Of a stretch of 27,585 nt of DNA, positions 1,184 to 22,020 are shown in pieces. Each line of letters begins with the position of its first letter. Positions within the stretch are counted from its first letter, which is position 1. The position numbers and the translations under genes were made by a program. The notes under the pieces were generated by a model that saw only the letters and a list, made by a program, of their open reading frames with translations, made no database searches and had not been told where the DNA came from. This DNA is from a bacterium (GTDB taxonomy: Bacteria > Krumholzibacteriota > Krumholzibacteriia > G020349025), in the NCBI GenBank assembly GCA_031362565.1, contig JANLSU010000046.1:1-27585 (forward strand). The letters run 5' to 3'.

Positions 1184-2308
1184 ATGACGGGCCCGGCGCG
1201 GGCCCGGGGCCCCGGCCGCAGGCTCCTCCTGGCGCTCGGATGGATCGCCGCTTGGGGGCTTCTGGGGCTGTTTTTCGGCAGCCAAACGCTGCTCTATGCG
1301 CGCTACTCGGGCCGCCATCCGAATCCCGCCGACGTGTTGCTGGTGCCATGCACCGAGATGCTCCTGTGGGCGCCGCTCTCGGCGGTCGCCCTGTGGTTCG
1401 CGCGCCAGCGCCCGTTCGAACGCCGGCACATCGGCCGTGCCCTCGCCTTCCACGTGCCGGCGGCGCTCGCGCTCTCGAGCGTGCAAGCGGTGGCGACGGG
1501 TTGCGTGTTCTGGGCCCTCGGGTTGTTCGCCAAAGCGCCGTTGCCGGTACCGCGGCTGCTTCTCGGCCTCATGGTCGGCAAGTTGAGCGCCAACATCGTG
1601 ACGTATGCCGCCGTGGTCACCGGCTTCCTGGCGCTCGATACCCGGCGCCGGCTCCACGAGCGCGAGTTGCGTGCGTCGCAGCTCGAGGCGCGCCTGGCGG
1701 ATGCGCGATTGGATGTGCTGCGCATGCAGCTGCAGCCGCACTTTCTCTTCAACACGCTGCACGCCATCTCGACCCTCATGCATCGCGACGTCGAGGCGGC
1801 GGACCGCATGCTGGTGCGCCTTTCGGACCTTTTGCGCCTGTCGATGGAGCACGACGACGCACGCGACATCCCGCTGTCGCGCGAAATGCAATTCCTCGAC
1901 GCGTATGTCCAAATTCAGCAGGTGCGTTTTGGGGAGCGGTTGCGCGTCCGTACAGAGATCGAGCCACGGGCTCTCGATGGACGGGTGCCGACATTGCTGT
2001 TGCAACCGCTGGTCGAGAATGCCATCCAGCACGGCATCAGCCATCGGGCGGCGGGTGGTGCGATCGAGATCACGGCGCGGGTCGTGGAGGGCTGTCTCAT
2101 CCTCGAGATCGGCGATGACGGGCCGGGGTGGAACGGCGCGCCGCGGGCGGGCGGGCGCGGACTCGCGAACACCCGCGCCCGGATCGAGCAGATGGCACCG
2201 GGCGCCGCACGCTTCGAATGCGTCGAGCGCCCGGGTGGCGGGGCGCTCGTCCGCGTCACAATTCCGTTCGTGACCGGCAGCGGCGTGGCGGGGGGCGGCG
2301 CACCATGA
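1184..2308 (+). CDS. LytS/YehU-family membrane sensor histidine kinase
   Basis: N-terminal hydrophobic helices, the His_kinase motif LRMQLQPHFLFNTLHAI, and HATPase motifs LLQPLVENAIQHG and DDGPG...GRGL. Confidence 0.95.
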   Translation: MTGPARARGPGRRLLLALGWIAAWGLLGLFFGSQTLLYARYSGRHPNPADVLLVPCTEMLLWAPLSAVALWFARQRPFERRHIGRALAFHVPAALALSSVQAVATGCVFWALGLFAKAPLPVPRLLLGLMVGKLSANIVTYAAVVTGFLALDTRRRLHERELRASQLEARLADARLDVLRMQLQPHFLFNTLHAISTLMHRDVEAADRMLVRLSDLLRLSMEHDDARDIPLSREMQFLDAYVQIQQVRFGERLRVRTEIEPRALDGRVPTLLLQPLVENAIQHGISHRAAGGAIEITARVVEGCLILEIGDDGPGWNGAPRAGGRGLANTRARIEQMAPGAARFECVERPGGGALVRVTIPFVTGSGVAGGGAP

Positions 2309-3069
2309 GTCTGCGCGTTCTCATCGTCGATGACGAGGCGTTGGCGCGGGAGAAGCTCCGCACGCTGCTGGCATCGGAGCCGGACGTGGTGCTCGTGGGC
2401 GAATGCGCCGATGGGCTCGAAGCGCTGGCTTGGATCGAACGCGATCCGCCCGACTTGATGTTTCTCGACGTGCAGATGCCCGAACTCAACGGCTTCGAGG
2501 TCTTGGACGCAATCGGCACACCGCGCGTCCCAGCGGTCGTATTCGTGACGGCGTATGACCAATACGCGCTGCGTGCTTTCGAGGTGCACGCGCTCGACTA
2601 CCTGCTCAAGCCGTTCGACCGTGAGCGCTTCCAGCAGGCTCTCGCCCGCGCCCGGTCCGGCGTCACCGCCGGCGGCCAAGGGCTCGAGCAGAGCGTGCGC
2701 GCCTTGCTCGACGACCTGCGACAGGCACGCGCCCACGCCCAGCGTCTCATCGTCAAGAGCGGCGGGCGCGTTTTTTTCGTGCCTGTCGCCGAGATCGATT
2801 GGGTGCAGGCAGCCGGCAACTACGTCGAGTTGCATGCCGGGACCGAGAGGCATCTCTGGCGCGAAACAATGCAGAGCCTCGTCGCCAGGCTCGACCCGGA
2901 GCACTTCGTACGCATCCACCGCTCGGTGCTCGTCAACATGCGCCAGGTGCGCCACGTCGACATTGGCGAGTCGGGCGAATACGCCGTGACGCTCCAGAGC
3001 GGCCGCACCTTGCCGGTGGGCCGCGCCTTCCGGCGCGCCTTCCGAGCCCGCATCGACAAGGTGGGTTGA
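2305..3069 (+). CDS. LytTR-family DNA-binding response regulator
   Basis: ATG at 2305 overlaps the kinase stop (ATGA). Receiver motifs VDDE, FLDVQMP and DYLLKP are followed by LytTR motifs AAGNYVELH and FVRIHRS. Confidence 0.95.
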   Translation: MSLRVLIVDDEALAREKLRTLLASEPDVVLVGECADGLEALAWIERDPPDLMFLDVQMPELNGFEVLDAIGTPRVPAVVFVTAYDQYALRAFEVHALDYLLKPFDRERFQQALARARSGVTAGGQGLEQSVRALLDDLRQARAHAQRLIVKSGGRVFFVPVAEIDWVQAAGNYVELHAGTERHLWRETMQSLVARLDPEHFVRIHRSVLVNMRQVRHVDIGESGEYAVTLQSGRTLPVGRAFRRAFRARIDKVG

Positions 3070-3779: not shown

Positions 3780-3914
3780 CCCGTATCCTCCATCTTGCAG
3801 CGCACGGACCCGGTTCCAAAGACCGACTGGTGGGCGCGTGACCACTGCAGCATACTCCACGCCCATGACCCTTCCAACCCGTGGTGGGTCGGTGTGCCGG
3901 CAGCGGAGCGTTAA

Positions 3915-4643
3915 ATGTTGGCGAAGCGTAGCCTTCGATTCTTGAGGTTCGTCGCCGCGTTGCGGGCGCCGGCTGCGGTTGCATGCGTTCTGTACTGGCT
4001 TGCTGCTCTGCCGGCCGCGGCGCTGCAAGCTCGAGCGGCGGACACAAAAGCTCCCGTGGAGCCAACCAAGCTACGGCCGCGCGTCGCAGCACCGACCTGA
4101 AGCGGCTGACCGGGTGAAGGAGCGCCGCTCCGGGGGAGCGGCTTGCATACACAGTGGGCGCTGTCGCTGCGTTACGTCGACACGGAACTCGAGCGGCCAC
4201 GCTGGCGTTCCACCATCAGCTATCGCGTCCTCTCGAGTCTTCAGGTCGGGCTCGAGTACAACCCGGCCGCCGGCGAGGTTGGGCCGATTGCGACCTGGTT
4301 CTTGCTGCAGGAGGCAGGGCTCCGTCCGGCTGCTTTCCTCGGTACGAGTTCGGACCGCATTGGCTCGCCAAAGGGCAAGCAGTCGTACTATCTCACCGTG
4401 GCAAAAAACCTCGACCCGGTTCCGGTCTCGATCTATGGAAGCCTCAACTACTCGGAGTGGGATGCAGGATTCAATTTCCCATTCGGGGCGAATTTCGAAA
4501 TTTATCCAGGCATCACGGCGCAACTCATGTACGACGGCCATCGGACGCACCTTCTCGGGATGTACTCGGCGCAGCGGTTCAGTATCACACTGATTGATGC
4601 TTGGCTGGAGCGCTTTGGAATTGCCGCCTCGGTTGGCTTCTGA
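3915..4643 (+). CDS. Predicted exported selenoprotein with a UxxU motif and a beta-barrel-like C-terminal domain (242 aa with UGA readthrough)
   Basis: GGAG precedes the ATG and the N-terminus looks like a signal peptide. In-frame TGAs at 4098-4100 and 4107-4109 read P-T-U-S-G-U-P, the frame then stays open to 4643, and a SECIS-like hairpin lies at 4124-4142. The C-terminal part has amphipathic beta-strand patterns and ends in Phe (SVGF). Confidence 0.75.
4124..4142 (+). promoter_or_regulatory. Putative bacterial SECIS element
   Basis: Perfect 8-bp stem GCCGCTCC/GGAGCGGC with a GGG loop. The loop begins 22 nt after the second TGA and 31 nt after the first. Confidence 0.7.
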
Positions 4644-4656
4644 AAGGACCTGCTGA

Positions 4657-5322
4657 ATGAAAACCGTCATTGGGGTCGCCTTGGGTCTGGCGCTTTGGGC
4701 TGGATTGCCGGGCGGGGTAGCGCGCGCCGAAGCCGCCGAAAAAGCGGTTTGCATCGTCTGCAAGGTGACCGAAGGATCGAACACGGCCGAGGCCGTGAAA
4801 GCAGTTCGGGTGCGTGATGATGTTCGCTACGCCTTTTGCGCCGAGAAGTGCGCTAAGGAGTTCGACGCCGACCCGGCGGCATACCTGCCGCCGAAGTTCC
4901 CACGACCGGCACCAAATCTTGCGGTTACAAGCCTTGCCGGGGATTTGCTCAAATGGGAAACCTTCAAGGGCCGGGTGGTGCTCCTCGACTTCTGGGCCAC
5001 GTGGTGTGCGCCGTGCCGCAAATCCATGCCGGAGCTCGAGGTACTGCACCAGAAGTACGCCGGCCGCGGTTTCTCCGTCCTCGGTGTCTCCATCGATGAA
5101 GACGGAGCGGAAAAGGTCCGGAAGTTCATTGCCGCGAAAAAGTTCACCTACCCAATTGGAATTGATTCCGCAGCCGAGTCGACCTGGGAGCGCTTCCACA
5201 TCAAGGCGATTCCGGCCGCCTTCCTAGTCGACCAGCAGGGCCAGGTCGTCGCGCAGTGGACCGGAACGCCGGTCGACATTCGTGAGGTGGAAGCGAAGCT
5301 CGGTGCACTGCTCGAGCCATAA
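4657..5322 (+). CDS. Exported YHS/TRASH-domain + TlpA-like (thioredoxin-fold) disulfide reductase fusion
   Basis: Signal peptide ending near ARA-E, a YHS-like segment (CIVC...YAFCAEKCAKEFDADPAAY) and the TlpA motif LLDFWATWCAPC followed by IP. AGGA lies upstream of the ATG. Confidence 0.9.
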   Translation: MKTVIGVALGLALWAGLPGGVARAEAAEKAVCIVCKVTEGSNTAEAVKAVRVRDDVRYAFCAEKCAKEFDADPAAYLPPKFPRPAPNLAVTSLAGDLLKWETFKGRVVLLDFWATWCAPCRKSMPELEVLHQKYAGRGFSVLGVSIDEDGAEKVRKFIAAKKFTYPIGIDSAAESTWERFHIKAIPAAFLVDQQGQVVAQWTGTPVDIREVEAKLGALLEP

Positions 5323-5346: not shown

Positions 5347-5667
5347 TCAAACCCGTACGAGCTTCACCGCGGTTCCATAGGCCAGGACTTCGGTGACGCC
5401 GGACGCGAACTCCGTCGCATCGTAGCGCGCGGCGATGATGGCATCGGCGCCGCGCTCCTCGGCGTGCTTCATCATTCGATTGAACGCATCGTCGCGGGCT
5501 CGTTCGCAGACCTGCGCGTAGGCCTCGATATTCCCGCCGACGATTTGCTTCAGCCCACCGAGAAACCCCTGCGCGATGCTGGGCGATCGAACGACGATGC
5601 CGCGCACGACACCCAGGTACTGCCCCACCGTGAACCCATCGACCGCGTTGCCGGTCGTGATGACCAT
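5347..5667 (-). CDS. ybjQ: YbjQ/UPF0145 family putative heavy-metal-binding protein
   Basis: 106 aa with family motifs YLGVVRG, IVGG..EAY, AR..A..RM, GADAII and EVLAYGTAVK. GGAG lies upstream. Confidence 0.92.
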   Translation of the reverse strand: MVITTGNAVDGFTVGQYLGVVRGIVVRSPSIAQGFLGGLKQIVGGNIEAYAQVCERARDDAFNRMMKHAEERGADAIIAARYDATEFASGVTEVLAYGTAVKLVRV

Positions 5668-5776: not shown

Positions 5777-7075
5777 TCAGATAAAGTTCAGGAACGCCAA
5801 GAGCGCTGCACGCTGCGGACCCGGCAGTGCCAGGAAGGCATCACGCGCCCGTGAAGCTTCGCCGTCATGGGCGGCGATAGCAGCACTGATGGTCGCGGCC
5901 CGGCCGTCATGCAAGTACGGCGCGCTGACGCGCAGTCCCCACAGTGGCGCGGTTCGCATCTCGCGGGCTTCGGCGCGGCCTTGGACGATGCCGTCACCGA
6001 GCGCCCCCATGTCATGGAGCAAGAGATCGGTGAACGGGAAGAACCGCTTGCCCGATAGAGCTGCGACACCGGGGACGAAGCCCGTGATGAGCGCCGGTTG
6101 GTGGCAACTCGCACATTTCGACGCCACGAAGGTGCGTGTCCCGCGGAGCACTTCCGCGGTCGGCGCGCCTGCCAAGGGCGGCGGCGCCAGCAGCCGCATG
6201 AAGTCGTTGAATGCCTCGACGCCGTCACTGATGCCGTTGTTGTTGGCGTCCTCGTCGTCGATTGCCGTCCCGGGGATACCGTCATCACAGACGATGGGAC
6301 CGCCCTGCGGTGCATTCTCCACCGGGAAGAGGTTGTTGGTGATTCCCATCTCGTTCAGGTAGGCATCGCCCGAGAACACGAACACCGATGGCACTTGTGC
6401 TTTCCAGCCAAAACGGCCGATCTCGGACCGTTGGGTGGCGGGACTGACGACGATGTTGAGCCGCCCGGAGATGCCGTCGCGGTCGCGATCGGTGGGATCG
6501 GCAAGTTGCCGCAACAACCAGCCCGGGACAGCATCCAGCAGCCCCAAACCAAAGAGCGGCGTGGTTTGCCGGCCGGCAACGACATTGGCGGCGGCGGGCA
6601 CTTGTTCGCCGGGCTGCGAGCACGCGCCGTTCGTAATCCCCTTGATTTGAATCAGCGAGCCGCCCAATCGCGCCGAGGGGTCGAACGTGCCGTCGGCGTT
6701 GCGCTTTCCGAAGCGCGTTTCGACAAGAGTGCCGGCGCCCCCGATGCTGCCCTGCACGTGGCACACCGCGCAGCCGGCTTCATTGAAGACGGGACCCAAT
6801 CCTTCGTCCGGTGTCTCGATGCTTTCGAATTCTTCCTTGCCCGCCTCGAAGCGCGCGACCAGCGCCGCCGGGAGACCGGGAAGGGGCGCGCCGAAATTCA
6901 CGGCGGAGGGCTCGCCGACGGCTTTCTCACACGCATCGGCGAGCGAAGCCTCATCTGTTGCTACGGGAGCCGGGTTGTTGGGTGTGGGCTCAGGAGAGAC
7001 TCCGTCGCGGACGCATCCCCCGCAGAACACCGCCACCACCACGACCATGACCCCGTAAGCCATGACGCGAACCAT
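5777..7075 (-). CDS. Di-heme oxidoreductase (DHOR-family) c-type cytochrome, probable lipoprotein
   Basis: Two CxxCH motifs (CAVCH, CASCH) plus family motifs GLGPVFN, GRFGWKA, TDLLLHDMG, RTAPLWG and YLHDGRA. AAGGAGG precedes the ATG at 7075, and FCGGC resembles a lipobox. Confidence 0.9.
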   Translation of the reverse strand: MVRVMAYGVMVVVVAVFCGGCVRDGVSPEPTPNNPAPVATDEASLADACEKAVGEPSAVNFGAPLPGLPAALVARFEAGKEEFESIETPDEGLGPVFNEAGCAVCHVQGSIGGAGTLVETRFGKRNADGTFDPSARLGGSLIQIKGITNGACSQPGEQVPAAANVVAGRQTTPLFGLGLLDAVPGWLLRQLADPTDRDRDGISGRLNIVVSPATQRSEIGRFGWKAQVPSVFVFSGDAYLNEMGITNNLFPVENAPQGGPIVCDDGIPGTAIDDEDANNNGISDGVEAFNDFMRLLAPPPLAGAPTAEVLRGTRTFVASKCASCHQPALITGFVPGVAALSGKRFFPFTDLLLHDMGALGDGIVQGRAEAREMRTAPLWGLRVSAPYLHDGRAATISAAIAAHDGEASRARDAFLALPGPQRAALLAFLNFI

Positions 7076-7111
7076 GACGACCTCCTTCGCAACTGGCATG
7101 CAAAGGCGCGC

Positions 7112-7127
7112 TGCATGGCGCGTACCA
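7112..7127 (-). promoter_or_regulatory. Putative sigma-54 (-24/-12) promoter of the di-heme gene
   Basis: Minus strand reads TGGTACG-CGCC-ATGCA, with correct GG-N10-GC spacing and 2 mismatches to TGGCACG-N4-TTGCA. It ends 36 nt before the ATG. Confidence 0.55.
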
Positions 7128-7317
7128 CGCACGCGTGCAGGACATGTTCGAGGTCATGAGCCCGCGCATGGCGCGCATTGAACATCACGCCGCACGCGCA
7201 CGACGTCACACTTGCGAAGTGAGTGGCGTGCGAAACCGTGCACATTGGCGGGCGAGGCTTGCAACTTGAGGCTCGTTCGTGAGCGAGCCGAGGCAGGGTC
7301 GAAGCGATTCGGCGCGA

Positions 7318-8764: not shown

Positions 8765-9241
8765 ATGAAGTGGACTGCGATTTCCTCGCGGTTTCCGCTT
8801 TCCGCAGCCCTGACCGCCCTTGCGGTCACCGCCTGCGGTAGTGTGATGCTGCTCGGCACCAAATCCTTTGCGTGCGACGCCCACGCGTCCACCGTTACCC
8901 CTCAGCCCCAGGCCGCCGCGGCAGCCGTTCCGGCCCCGCAGCCGACCACAACCGCGATGGACGCCGGCATGCGCGCCTACATCGACCCGGATACCGGGCT
9001 TCTGACGAGCATCCGTCCAGAAGGCTTGCCCGCGGAAGTCGAGGCCGATAAGCAGCCGGAGCCGGAACTGTTCGAAGTGCGGTTGCCGGACGGCTCGTAC
9101 ATGATGGACCTCAAGGGGACCCATCAGGAGTACGTCACGATCCAGCTCGACCCGAACGGTAACAAGGTCATGCAGTGCGTCCAGGATCCCAAGGCCGCGC
9201 TGCCCGCGCCGGCACCCGCCCCACAACGCGAGGACCGGTGA
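8765..9241 (+). CDS. Small secreted protein upstream of the PA-domain peptidase (post-PEP-CTERM-1-like motif)
   Basis: GGGAG precedes the ATG at 8765 and there is a signal peptide. Motif GMRAYIDPDTGLL...LPDGS...DPNG....CV. The stop abuts the next gene. Confidence 0.75.
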   Translation: MKWTAISSRFPLSAALTALAVTACGSVMLLGTKSFACDAHASTVTPQPQAAAAAVPAPQPTTTAMDAGMRAYIDPDTGLLTSIRPEGLPAEVEADKQPEPELFEVRLPDGSYMMDLKGTHQEYVTIQLDPNGNKVMQCVQDPKAALPAPAPAPQREDR

Positions 9242-9246
9242 GCCAC

Positions 9247-11223
9247 ATGACATTCAAGAAACACAACCGCGGCCTCGTGGCGTGCATGGCGCTTGGCATG
9301 CTCCTCGCGATTACGGCCAGCAACGCCTTCGCAACGGCCGTCATCACCATCGTCAACAACAACGCCGCCGGCGTGGGATTCAATGACCCGGCGCCGCGCG
9401 CACCGGTCGGTGGAAACCCGGGCGTCACACTCGGTGCTCAGCGCCTGTTCATTTTCCAGTACGGCGCAAACATCTGGGGGAACATCCTCACCAGCTCCGT
9501 GCCGATTCTGGTTCGGTCGCAGTTCGCGGCACAGACTTGCACTGCGACGAGTGCGGTGTTGGGCAGCACCGGTGCACTCACGATCCATCGTGATTTCGCC
9601 GGCGCACCGTTCACGGGAACTTGGTACCAGCAGTCGTTGGCCAACAAGCTGTTTGGTTCCGACTTGTCAGCGGCGAACCCCGACATGACGTCGACCTTCA
9701 ACTCGAACATCGACCTCGGTTGCTTCGGCCCTGGCTTGCTGTGGTACTACGGCACGGATGGACTCGAAGGCACGAACATCGAGCTTCTGCCGGTCATCAT
9801 GCACGAACTCGGGCACGGCCTCGGGTTCGCGAGCACGACGAACGGCAGCACGGGCGTGTTGAACGGCGGCTTCCCGGGCGCCTATGACCATTTCCTGATG
9901 GACAACGTCTCCGGGTTGCATTGGGACGTGATGACGAACGCCCAGCGCGCGGCGAACGCCATCAGCATCAATCACCTGGTGTGGGACGGGGCCCGTGGCA
10001 AGGCCGAAGCGGCCGCCTTCCTCGGTCCACGCCCGCAGCTCAAGATCAACTCGCCGGGCGTGATCGCCGGCAGCTACGATGTGCAGACGGCGACGTTCGG
10101 AGCGGCGCTGACGCTGGGCGGATTCACCGGCAACATCGTTCAGGTCGACGACGGCGTCGCCCCGAACGAAGACGCATGTGAGCCGATCATCAACGGTGCG
10201 GCAGTGTTCAGCAACATCGCGTTGATCGACCGTGGCACGTGCACGTTCGTGCTCAAGGCACTCGCGGCTCAGGCCGCCGGCGCCACCGGCATGATCGTCG
10301 TCAACAACGTTCCGACCGGCCTGCCCGGCATGGGCGGCACGGATCCGTCGATCACGATTCCCTGCATCGGCATTTCGCAGGCCGACGGCAACGCCATCAA
10401 GGCGCAGCTCGGCGGTGGCGTCAACTGCACGATGTTGTTGGACCCGGCCAAGAAGGCGGGCGCCGACAATACGGGCCATCCGTTCATGTACGCACCGAGC
10501 CCGTTTGCCAGCGGTTCGTCGGTTTCGCACTGGGACATCAGTGCGTCGCCGAATGCGCTCATGGAGCCGGCCATCAACAACGACCTGCATGACACCGTCG
10601 ACATCACGCACGGTTTGTTCGTCGACATCGGCTGGTTCCCGGAGACGGTGCCGGTCACGCTCGATGAATTCGCGGCGTTGGGCCAGGCAGACGGCGTGCT
10701 CGTCCGCTGGCACTTCTCGGATCTCACCGATGTCGGTTCGATCACGCTCGAACGCGCCGTCGATGTGAACGGGCCGTTCGCCCCGCAGCAGACCGAACTC
10801 GGCCAGGAAGGCGCGGTCACGACCGCCCTCGATACGAGTGCCGAGCCGGGCGTGACCTACTACTACCACCTGCGCATCACGGACCGCCGTGGCCAGGGGT
10901 CGGTCGTGGGCACCACGTACGGACAGCGTTTGAGCGAGTCCATGCGCGTCAGTCTGATGAGCCCGAATCCGAACCCGGTTGTGAACGGCGTCACGGCGCT
11001 GCGCTACCGGATCGGCCAGGCGGGTCATGTCAAGCTGACCATCACCGACGTGAGTGGCCGCCAGGTTCGCTTGCTGCAAGACGAAGCGGTGCGCGCCGGC
11101 GAACACCTGATGCAGTGGGACGGTAAGAACAGCCAAGGCAGCGCAGTTGCCGCCGGCGTGTACTTCGTCCGCCTGCAGTCGACGATGGGCGCGAAGACGC
11201 AACGCGTGACGGTCGTCCGCTAA
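9247..11223 (+). CDS. Secreted zinc metallopeptidase with PA (protease-associated) domain and C-terminal FlgD-Ig/sorting-like domain
   Basis: Signal peptide ending AFA, the zincin motif HELGHGLGF, a PA domain (IALIDRGTCTFVLKALAAQAAGA), GSSVSHWD, and a tail PNPNP...WDGKN..G..VAAGVYFVRL. An alternative GTG start is at 9238. Confidence 0.9.
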   Translation: MTFKKHNRGLVACMALGMLLAITASNAFATAVITIVNNNAAGVGFNDPAPRAPVGGNPGVTLGAQRLFIFQYGANIWGNILTSSVPILVRSQFAAQTCTATSAVLGSTGALTIHRDFAGAPFTGTWYQQSLANKLFGSDLSAANPDMTSTFNSNIDLGCFGPGLLWYYGTDGLEGTNIELLPVIMHELGHGLGFASTTNGSTGVLNGGFPGAYDHFLMDNVSGLHWDVMTNAQRAANAISINHLVWDGARGKAEAAAFLGPRPQLKINSPGVIAGSYDVQTATFGAALTLGGFTGNIVQVDDGVAPNEDACEPIINGAAVFSNIALIDRGTCTFVLKALAAQAAGATGMIVVNNVPTGLPGMGGTDPSITIPCIGISQADGNAIKAQLGGGVNCTMLLDPAKKAGADNTGHPFMYAPSPFASGSSVSHWDISASPNALMEPAINNDLHDTVDITHGLFVDIGWFPETVPVTLDEFAALGQADGVLVRWHFSDLTDVGSITLERAVDVNGPFAPQQTELGQEGAVTTALDTSAEPGVTYYYHLRITDRRGQGSVVGTTYGQRLSESMRVSLMSPNPNPVVNGVTALRYRIGQAGHVKLTITDVSGRQVRLLQDEAVRAGEHLMQWDGKNSQGSAVAAGVYFVRLQSTMGAKTQRVTVVR

Positions 11224-13296: not shown

Positions 13297-16200
13297 CTAC
13301 CGGATCAGAATGACGCGGCGCGTCTGCTGAAAGGCACCGCTCACGAAGCGACAGAAGTAGACCCCGGCGGGGACGCGCCTGCCCGTCGTGTCGCGGGCAT
13401 CCCAGGCGGCGGCGTGCCGGCCCTGTCCTTCCAAACCGTGGCGCAGTGTGGCGACCCGCCGTCCAGCGGCGTCGAACACGCCCAGATCCACTTGGCGCGA
13501 CTGGGGCAGCGAGAACTCGAACGCGGCGCCTGGCCGGAACGGGTTCGGGCGCACGGGATGCAGCTGCAGAGCGAAAAGCGCCGTGCGGTCATACAGCCAT
13601 GACAAGAGGCCGACAGCTTCCTCGCGGCCGCCTGCAAACCTGCCGACGATCTGGTATTCGAGATGCACCCCGGGCTCGGCGGTGCGGTCCAAGACCTCGT
13701 AGCGGCCCGAGTGCGCCGACGACAGCGCCGGCACGGCATCCGGCAAGCGCATCCACGCCACCTCACCGGCGCGGCGCCGTTCGAGGCGGAAGGACTCGAC
13801 GCTCGGCTCGGCGCGCCAGTGCAAGAGCACGCCATCCGTCACGGACTCGGCGCCAAGGTCGCTCACCGTCACGGGCGCCGAGGGGACGACGAACCATGGC
13901 AGTGTTCCGGTTGCCGTGTTGTTCGAGAGATCCGTGTCCTCCGGAGCAACGTTCAACAATCGAAACCGCAGTCCGACGTTTGCCGACGGCACCTGCCAAA
14001 AGACGGTCAGTGCGTTCGGGAAGTAGAGGGGACCGGCCGGCACTCGCAGCGTCACACTCGTGATCGGCAGGTAGCCCGTTTCACTCAGCCACTCGGCGAG
14101 CAGGGAACATGTCGACTCGACGTCGTTCTGGTTGTACACCCCGACCTCGATCAACACCGGTTCGCCGGCGGATGGATTGGTGGGTGTAATGTGAATCGAA
14201 CTCGAGTAGATCGCTAGGTCACTTGGGCCGCCCGACGCGCCGCGGTGCGTACAGTTGTTCGTCTCGTCCGATTCAAAGATCCGGTTGTTTGGATCCGCAC
14301 ACGCCTCCAACTGTTGCGCGCCAAGCGGTTCGGTCACGACCCACGGCGTCGTGCACTGTACGGTGTTCGAAGCGCCGGGCAAGATGTCGCCCATCGACAA
14401 ATCGCAGAGCGTCACGTGGTCGAGCTGCAGGCGTGCCTCGACGTCGCGGGCCCGTCCGGTTCCATGGTTCGCGACTTGCACGTCGACAGCCCGTACGGTG
14501 TCGCCCACCTGCGGGGTGAATCCGGGTGGGAAATGGATCGTCGGGACGAGATCGATGGTCACGATGCAACCGACGTTCAGGTCCTGTGCAAAGGCGTTAT
14601 CGGTCTCGTCGGACTCCGGCCAGGCGTTCTGCGGGTCGATGACCGCCGCCACATGGTACAACCCGTCCGTAAACGTGTGTGTGACGTGCACCGGCGCGAT
14701 CACCCCACCGCAGGTGCTTCCACCCCGCACGTTCGCCGCCACGGCGGTGCCGATCACAGCCCCGCCGTGCGACTCGTCGCGAAAATCGACCTGCACCGAA
14801 TCGCAGTCGAACAAGCCATCATTGAGAACGACGGCACGAATGTCGACCGGGGTGTCGGGACAGGGCGCGCAGGCAGAGAACATCGAGTTCGGGTTCGGGC
14901 ACCGCGTAATGACCTGCGGCCGCAGATTCCAGGGCAGCACCCGGAACGCGCTGTTGTCCAGCGTATCGGGCTCCGCTTGACCGGCGGGATCGATGGCTAC
15001 CGTGACAACATGGGGCGCGAAATCCGCCGCCCACACACCCGGCGATGTCGCCAGCACCCTGCTCCCCGGGTGCAATGGACCGATCGGCACGGCCACGCCG
15101 CCGATCACACTGTCGTCGACCGTAAACCGGACGTTCACGGGGAGCGTCGCATCACCTGGGCCCGAGTTCGAGATCCAGGACTGGAACTGCAGTTCCTCGC
15201 CGAGCGCCGGGGCCGCATTCGTCACGTGAATATCGCAGGACTCGACGTGGAAGTTGGGCCGCGGTGGTAGCGGCGGCACGTCGCAGTGCCCAACACAAAG
15301 ACTTGCCGTGAGAGTGTTGTTGCCTGCCTCACAGTCGGTGCCGGCAACGTGCTCGGGATCCAACACGAAGTCCAGTTCGTGGCATGTCAGCTCGAATGCT
15401 TCGGCAAAGGACACTTCCGCCGCCGCACCGGGTGCGAGCGCGTCTAGCGCCGCCGTCGCAATCTCCCCGCCATCGGAGTGGCAGGCAACGCGCGCCGACG
15501 ACGACGCCACACAGCCACGGTTCACGACCCGGATCGTGAATGGAACGTTCGTCGACGAGCAAAACGGACTCGCCGTGAACTGTGCCCGCTCGAGCGCCAG
15601 ATCCAAGCAGCCCGGCGGCACCACGACACTGGCGGCCGCGGCATTATCGTCCTTGCGGAATTCACGCCGCGCATTGTCCGGGTCGATCTGCGCCGTAAAG
15701 GAACGCAAACCACTACCGGACACCGGCACCTCGAGAGGATCGAGCGCTACCGTCGCACCTGGTGCGAGCGCGCCAAGCGCCAACTCGCCCGCAAGCTCCA
15801 CCCCATCGGCCAGCAAGCGCACCGTCGTCGCCTCCGACGTCCGGTCCCCCTGATTCGTCACCGACCACGTAATCGCCGCCACCGTCGCGGGACAGCCCGC
15901 ACCCAGCGCGGCCTCGAGATGCAGAGCCAAGTTCGCCAAGTGCGGTGGCTGCTGCCCCAGAATCGATGTCACCTGCACGCTGACGATCGACGAGTCGGTG
16001 CGGGCGCCATCGCGCACCACGAACGACAACCGGTAGGAGCCCAGCACCGCCGGCGGCGTGAAGCCGGCGCGGAAATTACCCGCCGCATCGGTGCGCGTCG
16101 TTTGTGAAGCATCCCAGGACGGTGCACACACAACCTGGGCGCCGCTCACCACGGCGTGCGGCATTGCCCCAACAGAATAGGCGGCATTGCCGTTCATCAT

Positions 16201-17550
16201 AAACGGCGCCACCGGCGGCACGGTGATCGACGGTGGTAAACCGCTCAACACCAGGACTGCGGAGCTGCCGACCGACACCGCGTGGCTTGCGACGTTGTCC
16301 GTCTCATCGCTCTCGGGAATCGTATTGCCGGGATCGACGCGCACGCGCACCGGCTGGAAACCCGGGTCCGTGAAGCGCCAACTGCAGGCCACCTCGGTCG
16401 TGGAACGAGGTCCCATCGAAGCCAGAGTGCGCTCGGCGATGATCAGTCCAAACACATTTTCGATGCGGACCCGGACGTCGTGTGCCGAACGATCGGATCG
16501 GTTCTCGATGCGGGCCACGATTGCGGTCATGGTATTGACCGGCGGATCGCCGGGCACGACGCGAATATCCTCCGCATGCACGACGAGATTGGGCCACTCG
16601 CCGGTCACGAAGAGTGAATCATGCCAGGCCGTCGCGCTGCCCGGCACCGCGGCACCGTGCGCGTCCACGGCGGCGAATCGATAGTGGTAGCGGCCGCCCG
16701 GCGGCGCGCCGAGGGCCACGTCATAGCGGTACTCCTTGCCGTTCGTAAGGGTGGAATCCTGGTCCGCGGACGACATCGTGAACGCGCCCTCGCCCGGATC
16801 CAGCGCGTCACCATCGGCATTGGCGTCCAGTTCGAGGCGTGGCGATCCCGCCGCCGGCACGAGCCCGTCGGAATTCGCAAAGACGACGCGGAAATGGAAC
16901 AGGTCGCCGGGCTGGCCCTGGTGTGGCTCGACCCCGCGGTTGCCGTTGTAACCGGGCAGTTGGGAGTAGTCGAGATCCTGTGGCGCCCGCTGCTCCAGTC
17001 GGAAATGCCCTCCCACCGCCTCGACTTTGGAATACTCCGGAAGATTGCAGCGCGTGAAAATCGGCGTCGCAAAGTTGGGGTTCGTAGGTGGATTGCCGCC
17101 GACAACGATCAAATCATGTGGCGCCACGACCGAGGTCGCGATCACCACCGCGGTATAGAGAAGAACCTGCCCTTCCGTTGCGCCGGTGCAAAACGAAAAG
17201 GCGATGTTGGCGCGCTGGGCGCCGTTCACAACCCGAAATGGATCGCCAAGCGTGATCACGGCCGCCGGGTTCGCTGCCACGAACACCTGCCAACCGTCCG
17301 GGAACCCACTAACGCTGAATTCGGCGCCGGTAATGCCGTCGGCCGTTTCGCCGTCCAGCGTGGCGATGATGTACAGCGTGCGCGGCACGCCGATCGCGAA
17401 CGTGGCACTCGTTCGCGTCCCAGAGAGATCCGAGTAGAGTCCAATCGTGCCGTTTGCTTCGAGCGCCGTCGCCACCGTCGCACCCGGGCCAACACCGAAC
17501 GCCAACGCCGCCAGCGCTACACCCACTGCAAACTGTCTAGCAAGGATCAT
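13297..17550 (-). CDS. Large secreted CARDB-repeat protein with FlgD-Ig/sorting-like C-terminus (paralog A, 1417 aa)
   Basis: GGAGG precedes the ATG at 17550 and there is a signal peptide. About 7 CARDB-like units carry DP.N...E.DE.(D/N)N motifs. The tail reads PNPF...WDARD..GRRVPAGVYFCRF. Confidence 0.88.
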   Translation of the reverse strand: MILARQFAVGVALAALAFGVGPGATVATALEANGTIGLYSDLSGTRTSATFAIGVPRTLYIIATLDGETADGITGAEFSVSGFPDGWQVFVAANPAAVITLGDPFRVVNGAQRANIAFSFCTGATEGQVLLYTAVVIATSVVAPHDLIVVGGNPPTNPNFATPIFTRCNLPEYSKVEAVGGHFRLEQRAPQDLDYSQLPGYNGNRGVEPHQGQPGDLFHFRVVFANSDGLVPAAGSPRLELDANADGDALDPGEGAFTMSSADQDSTLTNGKEYRYDVALGAPPGGRYHYRFAAVDAHGAAVPGSATAWHDSLFVTGEWPNLVVHAEDIRVVPGDPPVNTMTAIVARIENRSDRSAHDVRVRIENVFGLIIAERTLASMGPRSTTEVACSWRFTDPGFQPVRVRVDPGNTIPESDETDNVASHAVSVGSSAVLVLSGLPPSITVPPVAPFMMNGNAAYSVGAMPHAVVSGAQVVCAPSWDASQTTRTDAAGNFRAGFTPPAVLGSYRLSFVVRDGARTDSSIVSVQVTSILGQQPPHLANLALHLEAALGAGCPATVAAITWSVTNQGDRTSEATTVRLLADGVELAGELALGALAPGATVALDPLEVPVSGSGLRSFTAQIDPDNARREFRKDDNAAAASVVVPPGCLDLALERAQFTASPFCSSTNVPFTIRVVNRGCVASSSARVACHSDGGEIATAALDALAPGAAAEVSFAEAFELTCHELDFVLDPEHVAGTDCEAGNNTLTASLCVGHCDVPPLPPRPNFHVESCDIHVTNAAPALGEELQFQSWISNSGPGDATLPVNVRFTVDDSVIGGVAVPIGPLHPGSRVLATSPGVWAADFAPHVVTVAIDPAGQAEPDTLDNSAFRVLPWNLRPQVITRCPNPNSMFSACAPCPDTPVDIRAVVLNDGLFDCDSVQVDFRDESHGGAVIGTAVAANVRGGSTCGGVIAPVHVTHTFTDGLYHVAAVIDPQNAWPESDETDNAFAQDLNVGCIVTIDLVPTIHFPPGFTPQVGDTVRAVDVQVANHGTGRARDVEARLQLDHVTLCDLSMGDILPGASNTVQCTTPWVVTEPLGAQQLEACADPNNRIFESDETNNCTHRGASGGPSDLAIYSSSIHITPTNPSAGEPVLIEVGVYNQNDVESTCSLLAEWLSETGYLPITSVTLRVPAGPLYFPNALTVFWQVPSANVGLRFRLLNVAPEDTDLSNNTATGTLPWFVVPSAPVTVSDLGAESVTDGVLLHWRAEPSVESFRLERRRAGEVAWMRLPDAVPALSSAHSGRYEVLDRTAEPGVHLEYQIVGRFAGGREEAVGLLSWLYDRTALFALQLHPVRPNPFRPGAAFEFSLPQSRQVDLGVFDAAGRRVATLRHGLEGQGRHAAAWDARDTTGRRVPAGVYFCRFVSGAFQQTRRVILIR

Positions 17551-17581
17551 ACTGGCCTCCAATGGCTCTCTCGATCACGCG

Positions 17582-20500
17582 CTAACGCATGAGCACCACG
17601 CGGCGCGTTTGCTGGAATGAACCAGCGACAAACCGGCAGAAGTAGACTCCCGCTGGGACCCGTCGACCGGTCGCATCGCAACCATCCCACGCCACCGTGT
17701 GGCGGCCCGCCGGCTCCGGACCATGGCGCAAGGCCGCAACGCGCCGTCCCGCGGTATCGAAGACGCACAGATCGATGCTGCGCGCGCCCGGCAGCGAGAA
17801 CTCGAACGCGCCTCCCGGGCGGAACGGGTTGGGACGCACCGGGTGCAATTGCAGGGCGAACAGGCCGGCGCGGTCGTAGGTCCACGACAGGAGGCCGACG
17901 GCTTCTTCCCTGCCGCCCGCGAAGCGTCCGATGAGCCGGTATTCGACATGCGCCCCGGGCTCGGCGGTGTCATCCAGAACTTCGTAACGCGCCGTGTTCG
18001 AGACCGATCGGGCCGGCACGGCGTCCGGCAGGCGAGTCCATGCCATGTCACCGGCGCGACGGCGCTCGAGCGCAAAGGACTCGACGCTCGGTTCCGCACG
18101 CCAATGCAGCAGCACGCCATCCGGCGTCGACTCGGCGCCGAGATCGCTCACCGTGACCGGCGTGTTGTTGGGAATGAACCACGGCAGCGTACCGTACACG
18201 ACGTTGTCCCCGGTGGACTGATCCGCCGGGCACATGTTCAGCAGCTGAAAACGCAGCGAGAGACTTGCGAACGGCGTCGTCCACACGATCCGCGCCGCAT
18301 TCACAAGGTGGATGGGTCCGGGCGGCACGCGCAGCGGCACGCTCCCGACCGGCAAGTAGACCCCGCCGATCGCTGCGGTCGTCCACTCGACCGTCAGCAG
18401 ACACGTCGTCTCGACATTGTTGAAGTTGTAGACATCGACGTCGATCACAACCGGCTGGCCGGCCGCCGGATTCGTCGGCGTGATGCGAATCGCAAACGGA
18501 GAGAGTCCCACATCGCTCGGGCCACCGGGCCCGACGCCGGCGGTGGCGCAATTGTTGCTTTCATTTGTTTCGCCGATGCGGCCGTTCGGATCGGCGCACG
18601 CCTGTAACTGCTGCGAGCAGAGCGGCGCCGCGACCACCCATGGCGTCGTGCACCGCACCGTACTCGAACCGCCAGCCGCAAGATTGCCCATCTGCAGGTC
18701 GCAGAGCGTCACCTGATTGAGCTGCAGCCGCGCCTCGACACCGAAAGCGCTGCCGGTTCCGTTGTTCGTCACTTGCACATCGACGGCCCGCACGGTGTCA
18801 CCCACCTGCGGCGTGAATCCGGGCAAGAAATGGATCGCTGACACGAGATCGACCGTCAGTGCGCACCCCACCTGCAGATCCTGGGTGTAGACGTTGTCGG
18901 CCTCGTTGGTCTCACTCCAGGCGTTGTGCGGATCGACGACGGCGGCCACGCGGTAGAGGCCGGCCGGGAACGCTTGTGTGATGTGAACCGGCGCAACCGT
19001 AGCCGCGCAGGCATTTCCGCCTCGCACATCGACCGCAAAGGCAGTGCCGATCAGCGCACCGCCCTGCAACTCGTCGCGGAAGTCGACCCGTACAGAGTCG
19101 CAATCGAGCAGGCCGTCGTTGACTACGACAGCCCGAATATCGATGTCCGTGCCGGCGCACGGCCCACAGGACGAGAACATCGCCGTTGCATCCGGACAGC
19201 GCGCGATCGCCTGGGGATGCAAATTCCACGGCAGGATGCGCGTGGCGACGAGATCAAAGGCGTCATTCGGCGGTTGAGCCGGCACCGTAACGGTCACCGT
19301 CAAAAGATGCGGGGCGAAATTCGCCGCCCACAGGCCCGGCGACGTCGCGAGGACCCGGTCCCCTGCCTGCAGCGGGCCAATAGGGATAGCGCCGCCGCCG
19401 ATCACGACGCCATCGACGTCGAACCGCACGCTGACCGGCTGGGTTGCGTTCCCCGGCCCGATGTTCGAAATCCAAGCCTGGAACCGTACCTGTTCACCGA
19501 GCGCTGGGTGCGAGTTGGTGATTTGCAGGTCGCAAGATTCGACACGGAAGGTGGGCGACGGCAACACCCCGCAGTCGGTGACACAAAGACTCGCGGTGAG
19601 GTCGTTGCTGCGGGTGTCGCAGTCCGTGCCGGCTGCGCCCTCGGGGTCGAGGCCGAATTCCAGTTCTTGGCAGGAAGCGCCGAACGGTCGCGAGAAAGAC
19701 ACCTCCATCGTTGCGCCCGGTGCGAGGGCGCCGAGCGCACTCGTTGCGATCTCCACTCCACCGACGCGGCACGCGACGCGCGCCGGCGCCGACGCGACAC
19801 AGCCGCGGTTCACCACCCGGGCCCCCCAAAGGACTGAAGCGGAGGCACAGAACGGGCTCGACGTAATGAAACGCGCCTGATCAAGCGCCAAATCAAGGCA
19901 ACCGGGCGGTACCACGACACTCGCGGCCGCCGCGTTGTCATCCTTACGAAATTCATGCAGCGCATTGCTTGGATCGACATGCGCCGTAAAGGAATGCAGG
20001 CCGGAGCCCGAGACTGGGACCTGAACCGGGGCGAGTACGACAGTCGCGCTGGGTGCGACGGCACCCAGTGCAATCTGGCTCGCAACCGCCACCCCGTCGG
20101 ACAGCAATCGCACCGTTGTAGGAACCGATGCCCGGTCCCCACGATTCGTAACCGACCACGAAATCGCCGTCGTCGTCGCCGGACATCCAGCGCCCAGCGC
20201 GGCGCCAACACTCAGGACCAAATTGGCGAGATGGGGCGCCTGCTGGCCCGCGAACGGTGACACTTGCACGCTCACAATCGACGAATCGGTGCGGGCACCG
20301 TCGCGCACCACGAATGACAAACGATAGGTACCCGGAACAGCAGGCGGCGTAAACGCGGCGTGAAATTCGCCCGCGGCATTGGTATAGGTTGTTTGCGAGG
20401 CTTCCCAGGAGGGCGAGCACACTACTCGGGCGCCACTCACTACGGAAGGCGGCAGCGCCCCAACCGTGTAGGCCGCGTTGCCGTTGAGCGTAAAAGGCGC

Positions 20501-21823
20501 CACCGGCGGCACCGGAACGTTCGGCGGCAACCCGCCGATCATGATGATCCCAGAGCCGGCGACATAGATCGCATGCGTTGCGACATTGTCGGTCTCGTCG
20601 CTCTCCAGAATCGCATTCCCCGGATCGACGCGAACTCGCACGGGCTGGAAACCCGCGTCCGCGAAACGCCAAGTGCCGGCGACTTCGGTCACGGATCGCG
20701 GCCCCATCGTCGAGAGCAGGCGCTCGACGATCGTCTGCCCGAAGACGTTCTCGATCCGAACCGTAACGCCGTTCACCTGACGGTCGGATCGATTCTCGAC
20801 CCGCGCCACGATCCCGGCGACGGCATTCGCACTTGGATTGAAGGGCAGAATGCGGATGCCCTCGGCATGCACGACGAGATTGGCGAGTTCACCGCTGACG
20901 AAGAGCGAATCGTGCCACGCCGTCGCAACGCCCGGCACGGCGGCACCATGGGCGTCCGTGGCGGTGAACCGGTAGTGGTAGCGGCCGCTCGGCGGCGCCC
21001 CGAGGGCGACGTCATAGCGGTACTCCTTGCCGTTCGTCAGAGTCGAATCCTGGTCCGCGGACAAGAGTGTGAACGCACCCTCGCCCGAGTCCGACGCGTC
21101 GCCATCGCCATTGCCGTCCAACTCGAGCCGCGGCGATCCCGCCGCCGGCAAGAGGCCGTCAGAGGTCGAATAGATGGCGCGGAAGTGGAACATGTCACCC
21201 GGCAGGCCCTGGTGCGGCTGGACTCCACGCCGCCCGTCATAGCCGGGCAACTGCGAATAGTCGAGATCCTGCGGGGCGCGCACGTCGAGATGGAAACTCC
21301 CCCCGAGAGCTTCCACCTTGGAAAACTCCGGAGAATCGCAGCGCGTAAAGAAGGGCATCGGAAAGGTGGCATTGCTCGGTGGGTTTCCCCCGAGCACGAT
21401 CAGATCGCGCGGCGCCACGACCGACTGCGCAATGACGACCGCAGTGTAGAGGAGAACGTGCCCGCCGGTTCCAGGGGCGCAATTCGCGAAAGCGATATTG
21501 GCGCGCCGAGCGCCTCCGGAAACGCGAAACGGATCGCCGAGCACGACGTTGGCTGACGGGTTGGGCGTCAAAAAGACGAGCCAGTCGTCCGGCATCCCGT
21601 CGACGCGGAATTCGGCGCCCGTAATGCCTCCGGCCGTTTGACCGTCGAGCGTCGCGACGATGTAGATGGTGCGCGGCACACCAATCGAGAAACTGCCGCT
21701 CGTCTGGGTGGCGGAGAGGTCGGCGTAGACCCCGATGGTGCCGTTTGTGCCCTGCGCGGCAACCGTGCCGGTGCTAAGAGCCACGGCGGCGATGACTGCT
21801 GCAACCGATTGCATCAATTTCAT
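17582..21823 (-). CDS. Large secreted CARDB-repeat protein with FlgD-Ig/sorting-like C-terminus (paralog B, 1413 aa)
   Basis: GGAGG precedes the ATG at 21823 (MKLMQSVAAV..., a signal peptide). The protein is colinear with paralog A over its full length. Confidence 0.88.
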   Translation of the reverse strand: MKLMQSVAAVIAAVALSTGTVAAQGTNGTIGVYADLSATQTSGSFSIGVPRTIYIVATLDGQTAGGITGAEFRVDGMPDDWLVFLTPNPSANVVLGDPFRVSGGARRANIAFANCAPGTGGHVLLYTAVVIAQSVVAPRDLIVLGGNPPSNATFPMPFFTRCDSPEFSKVEALGGSFHLDVRAPQDLDYSQLPGYDGRRGVQPHQGLPGDMFHFRAIYSTSDGLLPAAGSPRLELDGNGDGDASDSGEGAFTLLSADQDSTLTNGKEYRYDVALGAPPSGRYHYRFTATDAHGAAVPGVATAWHDSLFVSGELANLVVHAEGIRILPFNPSANAVAGIVARVENRSDRQVNGVTVRIENVFGQTIVERLLSTMGPRSVTEVAGTWRFADAGFQPVRVRVDPGNAILESDETDNVATHAIYVAGSGIIMIGGLPPNVPVPPVAPFTLNGNAAYTVGALPPSVVSGARVVCSPSWEASQTTYTNAAGEFHAAFTPPAVPGTYRLSFVVRDGARTDSSIVSVQVSPFAGQQAPHLANLVLSVGAALGAGCPATTTAISWSVTNRGDRASVPTTVRLLSDGVAVASQIALGAVAPSATVVLAPVQVPVSGSGLHSFTAHVDPSNALHEFRKDDNAAAASVVVPPGCLDLALDQARFITSSPFCASASVLWGARVVNRGCVASAPARVACRVGGVEIATSALGALAPGATMEVSFSRPFGASCQELEFGLDPEGAAGTDCDTRSNDLTASLCVTDCGVLPSPTFRVESCDLQITNSHPALGEQVRFQAWISNIGPGNATQPVSVRFDVDGVVIGGGAIPIGPLQAGDRVLATSPGLWAANFAPHLLTVTVTVPAQPPNDAFDLVATRILPWNLHPQAIARCPDATAMFSSCGPCAGTDIDIRAVVVNDGLLDCDSVRVDFRDELQGGALIGTAFAVDVRGGNACAATVAPVHITQAFPAGLYRVAAVVDPHNAWSETNEADNVYTQDLQVGCALTVDLVSAIHFLPGFTPQVGDTVRAVDVQVTNNGTGSAFGVEARLQLNQVTLCDLQMGNLAAGGSSTVRCTTPWVVAAPLCSQQLQACADPNGRIGETNESNNCATAGVGPGGPSDVGLSPFAIRITPTNPAAGQPVVIDVDVYNFNNVETTCLLTVEWTTAAIGGVYLPVGSVPLRVPPGPIHLVNAARIVWTTPFASLSLRFQLLNMCPADQSTGDNVVYGTLPWFIPNNTPVTVSDLGAESTPDGVLLHWRAEPSVESFALERRRAGDMAWTRLPDAVPARSVSNTARYEVLDDTAEPGAHVEYRLIGRFAGGREEAVGLLSWTYDRAGLFALQLHPVRPNPFRPGGAFEFSLPGARSIDLCVFDTAGRRVAALRHGPEPAGRHTVAWDGCDATGRRVPAGVYFCRFVAGSFQQTRRVVLMR

Positions 21824-21907
21824 GGCGGCCTCCAAGGCCAAATCCGGCGCGTCAAGAGCCAAAGCCTGCGCGCAGGCCCACGTCGAAAGGGTCCTTGGTG
21901 TGCTGGA

Positions 21908-21936
21908 AGTGTAACGCGGACGCCGCGGAGGGTCAA
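21908..21936 (-). promoter_or_regulatory. Putative sigma-70 promoter for the CARDB gene pair
   Basis: Minus strand reads TTGACC, a 17-nt spacer, then TACACT, about 85 nt before the ATG at 21823. Confidence 0.6.
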
Positions 21937-22020
21937 GCGAGTCGACCCCTGGCAGGTGGAGCAAGGCGCCGGGTATCCTCCAGAGTCCGGCCGCGGACCC
22001 CCCTTGGAGAGGATGTACGC

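Follow-up and report, generated by a model that had tools for sequence, protein, structure and literature searches.

The 27,585-nucleotide contig JANLSU010000046.1 (assembly GCA_031362565.1; the whole stretch is hereafter called the window), from a bacterium of the phylum Krumholzibacteriota, very probably carries at positions 3915-4643 of the forward strand a single gene for an exported protein of 242 residues that combines two selenocysteines (Sec, U) with an outer-membrane beta-barrel, a judgement that takes decoding and architecture jointly. When TGA is read through, a single frame is open over 3915-4640 (+), and its 242 codons include in-frame TGA at codons 62 (4098-4100) and 65 (4107-4109), both predicted to encode Sec, in the local reading ACC TGA AGC GGC TGA CCG. 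The original prediction, made from the sequence alone, had started from an open reading frame (ORF) of 61 amino acids (aa; 3915-4100) and another of 166 aa with a TTG start (4143-4643) that share one frame and are joined by two UGA codons in the spacing of a CxxC motif, and the list of ORFs and their translations bears this out. Its central claim, that the two pieces form one 242-aa UxxU selenoprotein, is supported by the presence of both TGA codons in all 85 copies of the family, by homologues with cysteine at the same sites, by a hairpin downstream of the codons and by the Sec machinery of the genome.

The prediction had allowed for the case that reads would not support the TGA codons. A Logan contig, assembled independently from a sequencing run that possibly represents the source sample (and is not an independent sample), gives the same sequence as the window over 3850-4700 (0 differences, word depth ~10), so the codons do not stem from the error of a single assembler.

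A scan of species-representative genomes yielded 171 relatives, the best 80 of which were kept; together with the window and three further loci, these make 84 loci that hold 85 copies, two of them in tandem at one locus (L041). The loci were found with two DNA patterns, the Cys-coded motif and GTSSDRIGS, and because TGA-containing loci could be found only through the latter, the set was not selected for TGA. In every copy, TGA-x-[G/A]-TGA is followed by P-G-E-G, within the family motif P-T-U-x-[G/A]-U-P-G-E-G; USGU is the variant in 63 copies, USAU in 14, UAGU in 5 and UVGU in 3. The residues flanking the TGA codons are kept in frame on both sides in the family alignment. Among 208 genomes of the same phylum, 24 (the window's own genome included) have a match, with two TGA codons inside it in all 24, and a six-frame readthrough search of 40 relatives found matches in five of them, all with two TGA codons. 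The expectation that homologues would keep TGA at both positions thus held without exception, and retention in 85/85 copies and 24/24 gene-bearing genomes implies that the codons are not in frame by chance. The record labels of the family loci span at least eight phyla: of 80 loci, 21 are labelled Eisenbacteria, 19 Poribacteria, 9 as classes of Acidobacteriota, 3 Latescibacteria and 3 'Cytophagia', six other labels occur once each, and 19 loci are unnamed. The tandem copies of the UxxU barrel, L041:2837-3379 and L041:4025-4567, lie on an Eisenbacteria-labelled contig. Several Poribacteria copies (L050, L055, L069 and others, with USAU or USGU) are flanked on one side by a gene for a GFO/IDH/MocA oxidoreductase and on the other by pairs of long sigma-70-domain proteins.

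In protein databases, the family is present mostly as fragments. Queried with the readthrough protein, a word-indexed protein search returned 671 proteins at E<=0.001, and among the 120 matches listed, 119 begin after the second TGA (138-166 aa, 57-69% query coverage); gene callers do split the gene, as had been foreseen. The only one that does not is P0055 (218 aa); it begins with an evident signal peptide and contains APTWSGWPGEGAPLKGSG, in which W stands at the two TGA positions of the motif. Another database entry, P0209, also renders both codons as Trp (WSGW). We infer that in both cases the gene caller chose translation table 4 on a short contig.

The prediction had placed the ribosome-binding site, the ATG and the signal peptide in the first piece, and this assignment stands. 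A Shine-Dalgarno-like GGAG can be read at 3905-3908 (+), separated by a 6-nt spacer from the ATG at 3915-3917, and the translation of 3915-4037 (residues 1-41) has the basic N-end and hydrophobic core of a signal peptide, with A-R-A before the likely cleavage site. In 76 of the 85 copies, a signal-peptide-like start (basic, then hydrophobic N-terminus, by a crude home-made rule) is found upstream in the same frame; most of the nine copies that miss the rule also look hydrophobic, and one of them is cut by the contig end. The prediction had pointed out that the second piece has only a TTG start; the codon aligned to TTG 4143 is a possible start in only 18/85 copies. Across the copies, the first in-frame start after the second UGA lies anywhere from 6 to 65 codons downstream, which is why gene callers pick many different lengths. 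The true stop is the TGA at 4641-4643 (+), after which no hairpin resembling a selenocysteine insertion sequence (SECIS) was called. The family copies end in TGA (51), TAA (17) or TAG (17), and TGA also ends 7 of the 12 Pfam-supported genes in the window.

Homologues with Cys at both positions, another expectation of the prediction, were found at the level of both protein and DNA. An exhaustive search of representatives clustered at 50% identity gave 158 proteins at E<=0.001, and of the 18 that were inspected, eight (P0136, P0143, P0148, P0152, P0207, P0153, P0165 and P0167) have C-A-G-C at the aligned site, in the context '(A)PTCAGCAGEA'; in more distant proteins among the 18, the motif is absent. 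A metagenome scan with the Cys forms yielded nine loci, eight of which have TGC or TGT at both positions. The protein P0129 reads P-A-C-V-G-W-P-G-E-G and, judging from its protein sequence, may be a mixed CxxU form with TGA rendered as W. In a quick IQ-TREE analysis of 59 rows (two of every three locus rows were left out, so that 28 Sec rows were kept; the careful search is unfinished, and the midpoint root is merely a display choice), the Sec rows are found to one side of a branch with SH-aLRT 92, the four Cys rows make up a clade of their own (100), and the motif-less proteins fall outside. This quick tree is compatible with a single switch between Cys and Sec but does not demonstrate it.

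A SECIS-like hairpin occupies 4124-4142 (+), as called from folding, pair counts, RNAalifold, the comparison of register between Sec and Cys forms, and published consensus rules. In the window, 4124-4131 pairs with 4135-4142 over 8 bp around the apical loop GGG at 4132-4134; the conserved part is 7 bp, 4125-4131 with 4135-4141, and RNAalifold independently gives the same 7-bp core stem. The hairpin is present in both the minimum free energy (MFE; -20.9) and the centroid structure. The bacterial SECIS consensus, as given in the legend to Fig. 2 of PMC13188914, comprises a loop of 3-9 nt, a stem of 4-16 bp, G in the first two loop positions, 16-37 nt from UGA to loop and an MFE <= -7.5 kcal/mol, and the window hairpin agrees with that legend on every point. 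Its loop follows the second UGA by 22 nt and the first by 31 nt; because both spacings fall within 16-37 nt, one hairpin is within range of both codons.

The comparative evidence for this hairpin comes from 84 aligned sequences, in which 94.8% of the 672 cells of the 8-pair helix are paired, with slid-register controls at 37-69%. Four of the eight pairs have changed on both sides, in 30 cells, and the covariation score was reached by none of 500 shuffles. The commonest compensatory change, C-G to U-A in 21 sequences, consists of two synonymous changes, Leu CTC>CTT and Gly GGG>GGA; C-G to G-C occurs in three sequences, with Leu>Val and Ser>Thr. Among the 85 Sec copies, 82 have all seven core pairs in register, two have six and one has four, whereas six distinct Cys forms have only 3-5 of the 7. 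The outer stem pair is broken (…GAGCGAG) in the first of the L041 tandem copies. A search of the whole window with Rfam gave nothing at gathering score.

The genome also encodes the Sec machinery that the prediction called for, namely, SelA (403.5 bits), SelB (350.4 bits, above the cut-off), SelD (383.6 bits) and a tRNA-Sec with the anticodon UCA (78.8 bits; also called by ARAGORN). The selD gene (G000:C6:945-1859, L016) has one in-frame TGA, and SelD is probably a selenoprotein itself here. Given that SelA is found in 200 of the 208 same-phylum genomes, including all 24 carriers, its co-occurrence with the gene says little. The genome has, in addition, a second tRNA-Sec-like gene at C70:109509-109606 (L018:1501-1598; RF01852, 52.6 bits, cut-off 47) with the anticodon loop CUUCAAA (UCA), which is not called by ARAGORN and is a candidate for an allo-tRNA or for a UGA decoder of the tRNA-ReC kind.

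The mature protein (4038-4640, 201 aa) was modelled with AlphaFold2 from a 114-row alignment. The model (mean pLDDT 89.3, pTM 0.83) contains 12-13 strands according to DSSP, the first starting at mature residue 40, and, judging from it, residues ~81 to 242 (4155-4640) very probably form a 12-stranded outer-membrane barrel. The preceding arm (4038-4154) carries the conserved motif, which in the window, according to the family alignments, reads (R-P-x-x-x-A-P-T)-U-S-G-U-P-G-E-G-A-P-L-R-G-S-G. The best Foldseek matches are 12-stranded outer-membrane barrels, namely, FapF, designed transmembrane barrels, NanC, KdgM and OEP21. In VIA-align comparisons, FapF (5O65) is followed by KdgM (4FQE; Z 15.9), VhGalP (14.9), EstA (14.6), the COG4313 channel 4RL8 (14.0), NanC (2WJQ; 14.0), and NalP and Hbp (~13.5, from model residues 21-23); FapF itself aligns with Z 17.4 and a root-mean-square deviation (rmsd) of 2.4 Å over 169 residues, covering model residues 13-201. 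The FapF and autotransporter alignments begin inside the arm, which suggests that the model places the arm in the lumen, where those proteins have their plug or linker. The C-terminus is aromatic, as in known barrels of this kind: the domain in the window ends in ...SVGF, and the alignment consensus ends in GF. Structural similarity to FapF, KdgM, NanC, 4RL8, NalP, EstA and Hbp (Z 13-17, rmsd 2.4-3.1 over 150-169 residues) contrasts with a sequence identity of only 4-15%. We know of no Sec or Cys pair on the N-terminal segment of FapF, KdgM/NanC, 4RL8 or the autotransporter barrels.

At the sequence level, the protein matches no family in Pfam or NCBIfam (release 20.0) at E<=1, in agreement with the remark in the prediction that it was not recognised as a described family. 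In particular, there is no match at E<=1 to the Pfam families KdgM, Phenol_MetA_deg (COG4313), DUF5777 or DUF3570. The relative P0059, named DUF3570 in UniRef, has no Pfam family at E<=1, and the distant relative P0149 touches DUF5777 with an E-value of 0.029 (14 bits vs a cut-off of 23.1). A profile search of the PDB sequences with the family alignment gave 0 matches at E<=1, and the clusters retrieved by a protein-cluster search with the Cys form P0143 were all either unnamed or called 'putative outer membrane beta-barrel', and they shared no Pfam family. A thioredoxin fold around the UxxU motif was considered and rejected: the model is an all-beta barrel, the motif is on the N-terminal arm, and no thioredoxin-family hidden Markov model (HMM) matches. 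The prediction of a barrel-like domain behind a UxxU arm, rather than a thioredoxin fold, is thus upheld by the 12-stranded model and its structural matches.

The barrel gene is followed, after 13 nt and on the same strand, by a partner gene (4657-5322, +) for which Pfam and NCBIfam scans indicate a 4-Cys YHS/TRASH-like domain, behind a signal peptide, and a TlpA/ResA-like thioredoxin domain. The four cysteines (C32, C35, C61 and C65) are invariant in 56 sequences. The thioredoxin domain contains WCAPC and matches NF047696 (87 bits) and NF002854 (97 bits), both below the cut-offs. Among the 56 partner proteins, 53 match YHS at E<=0.001, and all 56 match thioredoxin families. In 58 of the 84 loci, the partner comes directly after the barrel gene, in the same orientation; in L041, it follows the second tandem copy, and in L091, it lies upstream. 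Other arrangements are found in the Cys clade, where one to three YHS/TRASH domains are fused N-terminally to the barrel (P0153, P0167, P0165, L108, L111, L112, L113). A thioredoxin gene of ~160 aa without YHS comes directly after the barrel in L111, L112 and L113, but not in L108; in L109, also a Cys form, a separate YHS/TRASH gene precedes the barrel. In L094:92-988, a YHS-like segment (…FEKDPHKYLE…) is fused in frame upstream of the UxxU motif, an architecture otherwise seen only in the Cys forms. The three modules are thus kept together in three arrangements, which argues for one functional unit. Beyond the partner, no conserved neighbour was found around 14 Sec loci (61 proteins scanned). 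In the window, the partner is followed on the opposite strand by genes for a YbjQ_1 'putative heavy-metal-binding' protein (5347-5667, E 2e-31) and a di-haem oxidoreductase/peroxidase (DHOR; 5777-7132, E 8e-54), neither of which was seen beside the family in the other loci scanned.

We propose the following course of events. Both UGA codons would very probably be decoded as Sec by SelA, SelB, SelD and tRNA-Sec, apparently under the direction of the single hairpin at 4124-4142. Once the signal peptide is removed, residues ~81-242 would, very likely, fold into the 12-stranded barrel in the outer membrane. The ~40-residue arm with U-S-G-U might occupy the barrel lumen or its periplasmic mouth, as the plug or linker does in FapF and autotransporter barrels, a placement that we offer tentatively. 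On a slight balance of probability, the Sec pair would cycle between diselenide and diselenol and be kept reduced by the co-transcribed periplasmic protein with its YHS and TlpA-like thioredoxin domains. More doubtfully, the reduced pair could bind a soft metal, Cu(I) being the likeliest, and exchange it with the 4-Cys YHS/TRASH domain; the two genes would then, with the same doubt, form an outer-membrane and periplasmic metal-handling unit. In the part of PMC7558416 concerned with CoxB and ScoI, TlpA is described as reducing the copper-binding cysteines of these proteins before metallation. The function of the family is presumably soft-metal or redox handling at the outer membrane. A more specific version, which we consider unlikely, places the Sec pair inside an outer-membrane channel or at its mouth, where it would serve as a selenolate filter for metals or as a diselenide gate and be reset by the dedicated periplasmic YHS-thioredoxin protein, both Sec residues being inserted via one SECIS at UGA codons 9 nt apart.

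Several observations weigh against this picture. As a single sequence, the hairpin is undistinctive (z = -0.22; an equal or better fold in 73 of 200 shuffles), and because its energy is ordinary for G+C-rich DNA, only the comparative evidence counts. The conservation of the stem could come in part from the conserved peptide A-P-L-R-G-S-G, and since the covarying sequences belong mostly to one clade (Poribacteria), independent covariation events are few. One SECIS serving two UGA codons is, in the part of PMC13582414 on UXXU hydrogenases, raised only as a possibility. The second UCA tRNA-Sec-like gene makes another amino acid at the UGA codons conceivable. The arm (the first 40 residues, with U at mature residues 21 and 24) is modelled with a pLDDT of only 66-75. 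For the partner, the YHS match in the window is below the Pfam cut-off (22.6 vs 30.3 bits). No partner is found nearby in 23 of the 84 loci, comprising 19 Poribacteria-labelled ones and L097, L048, L068 and L035 (the L035 contig ends 237 nt downstream of the barrel gene), and three Poribacteria genomes give only thioredoxin-domain matches (query residues 70 onward), none over YHS. Pfam scans revealed no cop, cus, mer, sco or oxidase/cox genes beside the pair in 14 Sec loci (61 proteins) or in six Cys-form loci (27 proteins), and no metal-resistance genes beside the latter. Selenium incorporation and outer-membrane location are computational predictions, and metal binding is a proposal.

Three alternatives concern the decoding of the TGA codons. 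If they were real stops, the locus would encode a 61-residue secreted peptide and a separately initiated 166-residue protein, or else a pseudogene, in line with the annotation of the 119 database proteins that start after the TGA codons and with the TTG at 4143. We consider this highly improbable: the usable start after the TGA codons is not conserved, the barrel alone would have no export signal, the frame, the TGA codons and the peptide between and around them are kept in all copies across phyla, the hairpin is specific to the Sec forms, and the Cys homologues are continuous proteins. A variant code in which TGA is sense throughout, so that the motif would be W-x-x-W or G-x-x-G, would account for the Trp readings in P0055 and P0209, but with TGA ending 7/12 supported window genes and 51/85 family copies, its probability is practically nil. 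It is also very unlikely, if somewhat less so, that the second UCA tRNA inserts cysteine or another residue at the UGA codons, as tRNA-ReC does (SECIS-linked UGA read as Cys). The RF01852 match of that gene and its CUUCAAA loop speak for such recoding, and tRNA-ReC-like genes are enriched in genomes with UXXU hydrogenases, according to the passage on these enzymes in PMC13582414. Yet this tRNA is missing from the ARAGORN calls, there are mismatches in its acceptor stem, the genome has a canonical tRNA-Sec with the full selABD set, and a TGC codon would suffice for Cys, as it does in the Cys clade. Decoding as two Sec residues remains our preferred reading.

The remaining alternative shares the two-Sec barrel with this reading and differs in the role of the Sec pair, which would be a redox catalyst, an envelope peroxidase or a diselenide-exchange centre. 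It would remove oxidants at the outer membrane and depend on the TlpA-like thioredoxin for its recycling, with YHS in a structural or regulatory role. The bacterial selenoproteins catalogued in the relevant parts of PMC13188914 and PMC9312934 are for the most part redox enzymes whose Sec belongs to a CxxC-like motif; the partner matches the AhpC/TSA, Redoxin and GSHPx models, and the peroxidase-like DHOR gene is nearby in the window. Furthermore, the part of PMC10907172 that deals with ScsA links this envelope protein, which has a CxxC motif and is encoded together with TlpA-like reductases, to peroxide tolerance. However, peroxidases do not usually have a membrane barrel as their scaffold, DHOR did not turn up beside the family in the other 14 loci scanned, and the 4-Cys YHS/TRASH module stays with the barrel in all three gene arrangements, which points to metal handling. 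On this evidence, catalysis by the Sec pair appears improbable.

Among known systems, the catalogued UxxU proteins are the closest in decoding. The 2026 selenoproteome review (PMC13188914) lists UxxU, in the portion of its table beyond the first rows, in three families, Prx-like oxidoreductases (PF00578), the HMA-type NF041115 and FmdB (TIGR02605), and PMC13582414, in its part on these enzymes, adds the UXXU Group 4 [NiFeSe] hydrogenases. All of these resemble the family described here in having two UGA codons in CxxC spacing, Cys homologues and, downstream of both codons, a hairpin with G in the apical loop, one SECIS probably serving both. In contrast, none of their models matches the present protein, and they have thioredoxin, ferredoxin-like HMA, zinc-ribbon or hydrogenase folds in place of a barrel. 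The same portion of the review includes two outer-membrane selenoproteins, the GSU2204/MtrB-PioB-family barrel (NF041027) and a TonB-dependent receptor with an FCYXU motif (NF049945); these, too, are Sec-containing outer-membrane beta-barrels, but they belong to different families, in which the barrel is much larger and has only one Sec, and neither of the two models matches. Every family listed in that portion of the table carries a model accession, and it has no row for a two-Sec barrel family. Literature searches on bacterial UxxU and outer-membrane selenoproteins and on the combination of YHS, TlpA, barrel and copper found no description of this family. The TlpA/ScoI/CoxB system of Bradyrhizobium may be an analogue of the gene pair, with a TlpA/ResA-like thioredoxin encoded beside a [C/U]xx[C/U] protein and the same proposed logic of reduction followed by metal binding; the present partner differs by its extra YHS/TRASH domain, and its putative substrate, by being an outer-membrane barrel with selenols.

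Selenoprotein L, with which the prediction had compared the protein, is a eukaryotic thioredoxin-fold protein whose UxxU is thought to form a diselenide and whose SECIS is in the 3'-UTR. The comparison holds for the UxxU motif only, since both the fold and the decoding signal of the barrel protein are different.

If the preferred reading is correct, the bacterial catalogue gains a widespread selenoprotein family, present in soil, sediment and sponge bacteria under the labels of at least eight phyla, and selenium chemistry is placed on a new outer-membrane scaffold in lineages with almost no experimental biology. For annotation, the consequence is that gene callers truncate the family almost everywhere, which can be corrected by joining the signal-peptide ORF to the barrel ORF and by using a U-tolerant HMM. 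The family would also provide a natural test case for one bacterial SECIS serving two closely spaced UGA codons. Should the improbable channel version be true, no route of a soft metal such as Cu(I) through the outer membrane would have been shown to depend on selenium before this one.

Elsewhere in the window, the gene is preceded by a LytS-type histidine kinase and a LytTR response regulator (1184-3069, +) and by an RluA-type pseudouridine synthase (3072 to ~3779, -) that is divergent from the selenoprotein gene. Two adjacent giant proteins with CARDB repeats, of 1421 and 1641 aa, are encoded at 13300-17562 (-) and 17585-22507 (-). Both end in a FlgD_ig domain, and the same C-terminal domain is found on a PA-domain protein encoded at 9175-11220; it may serve these window proteins as a common sorting tag.

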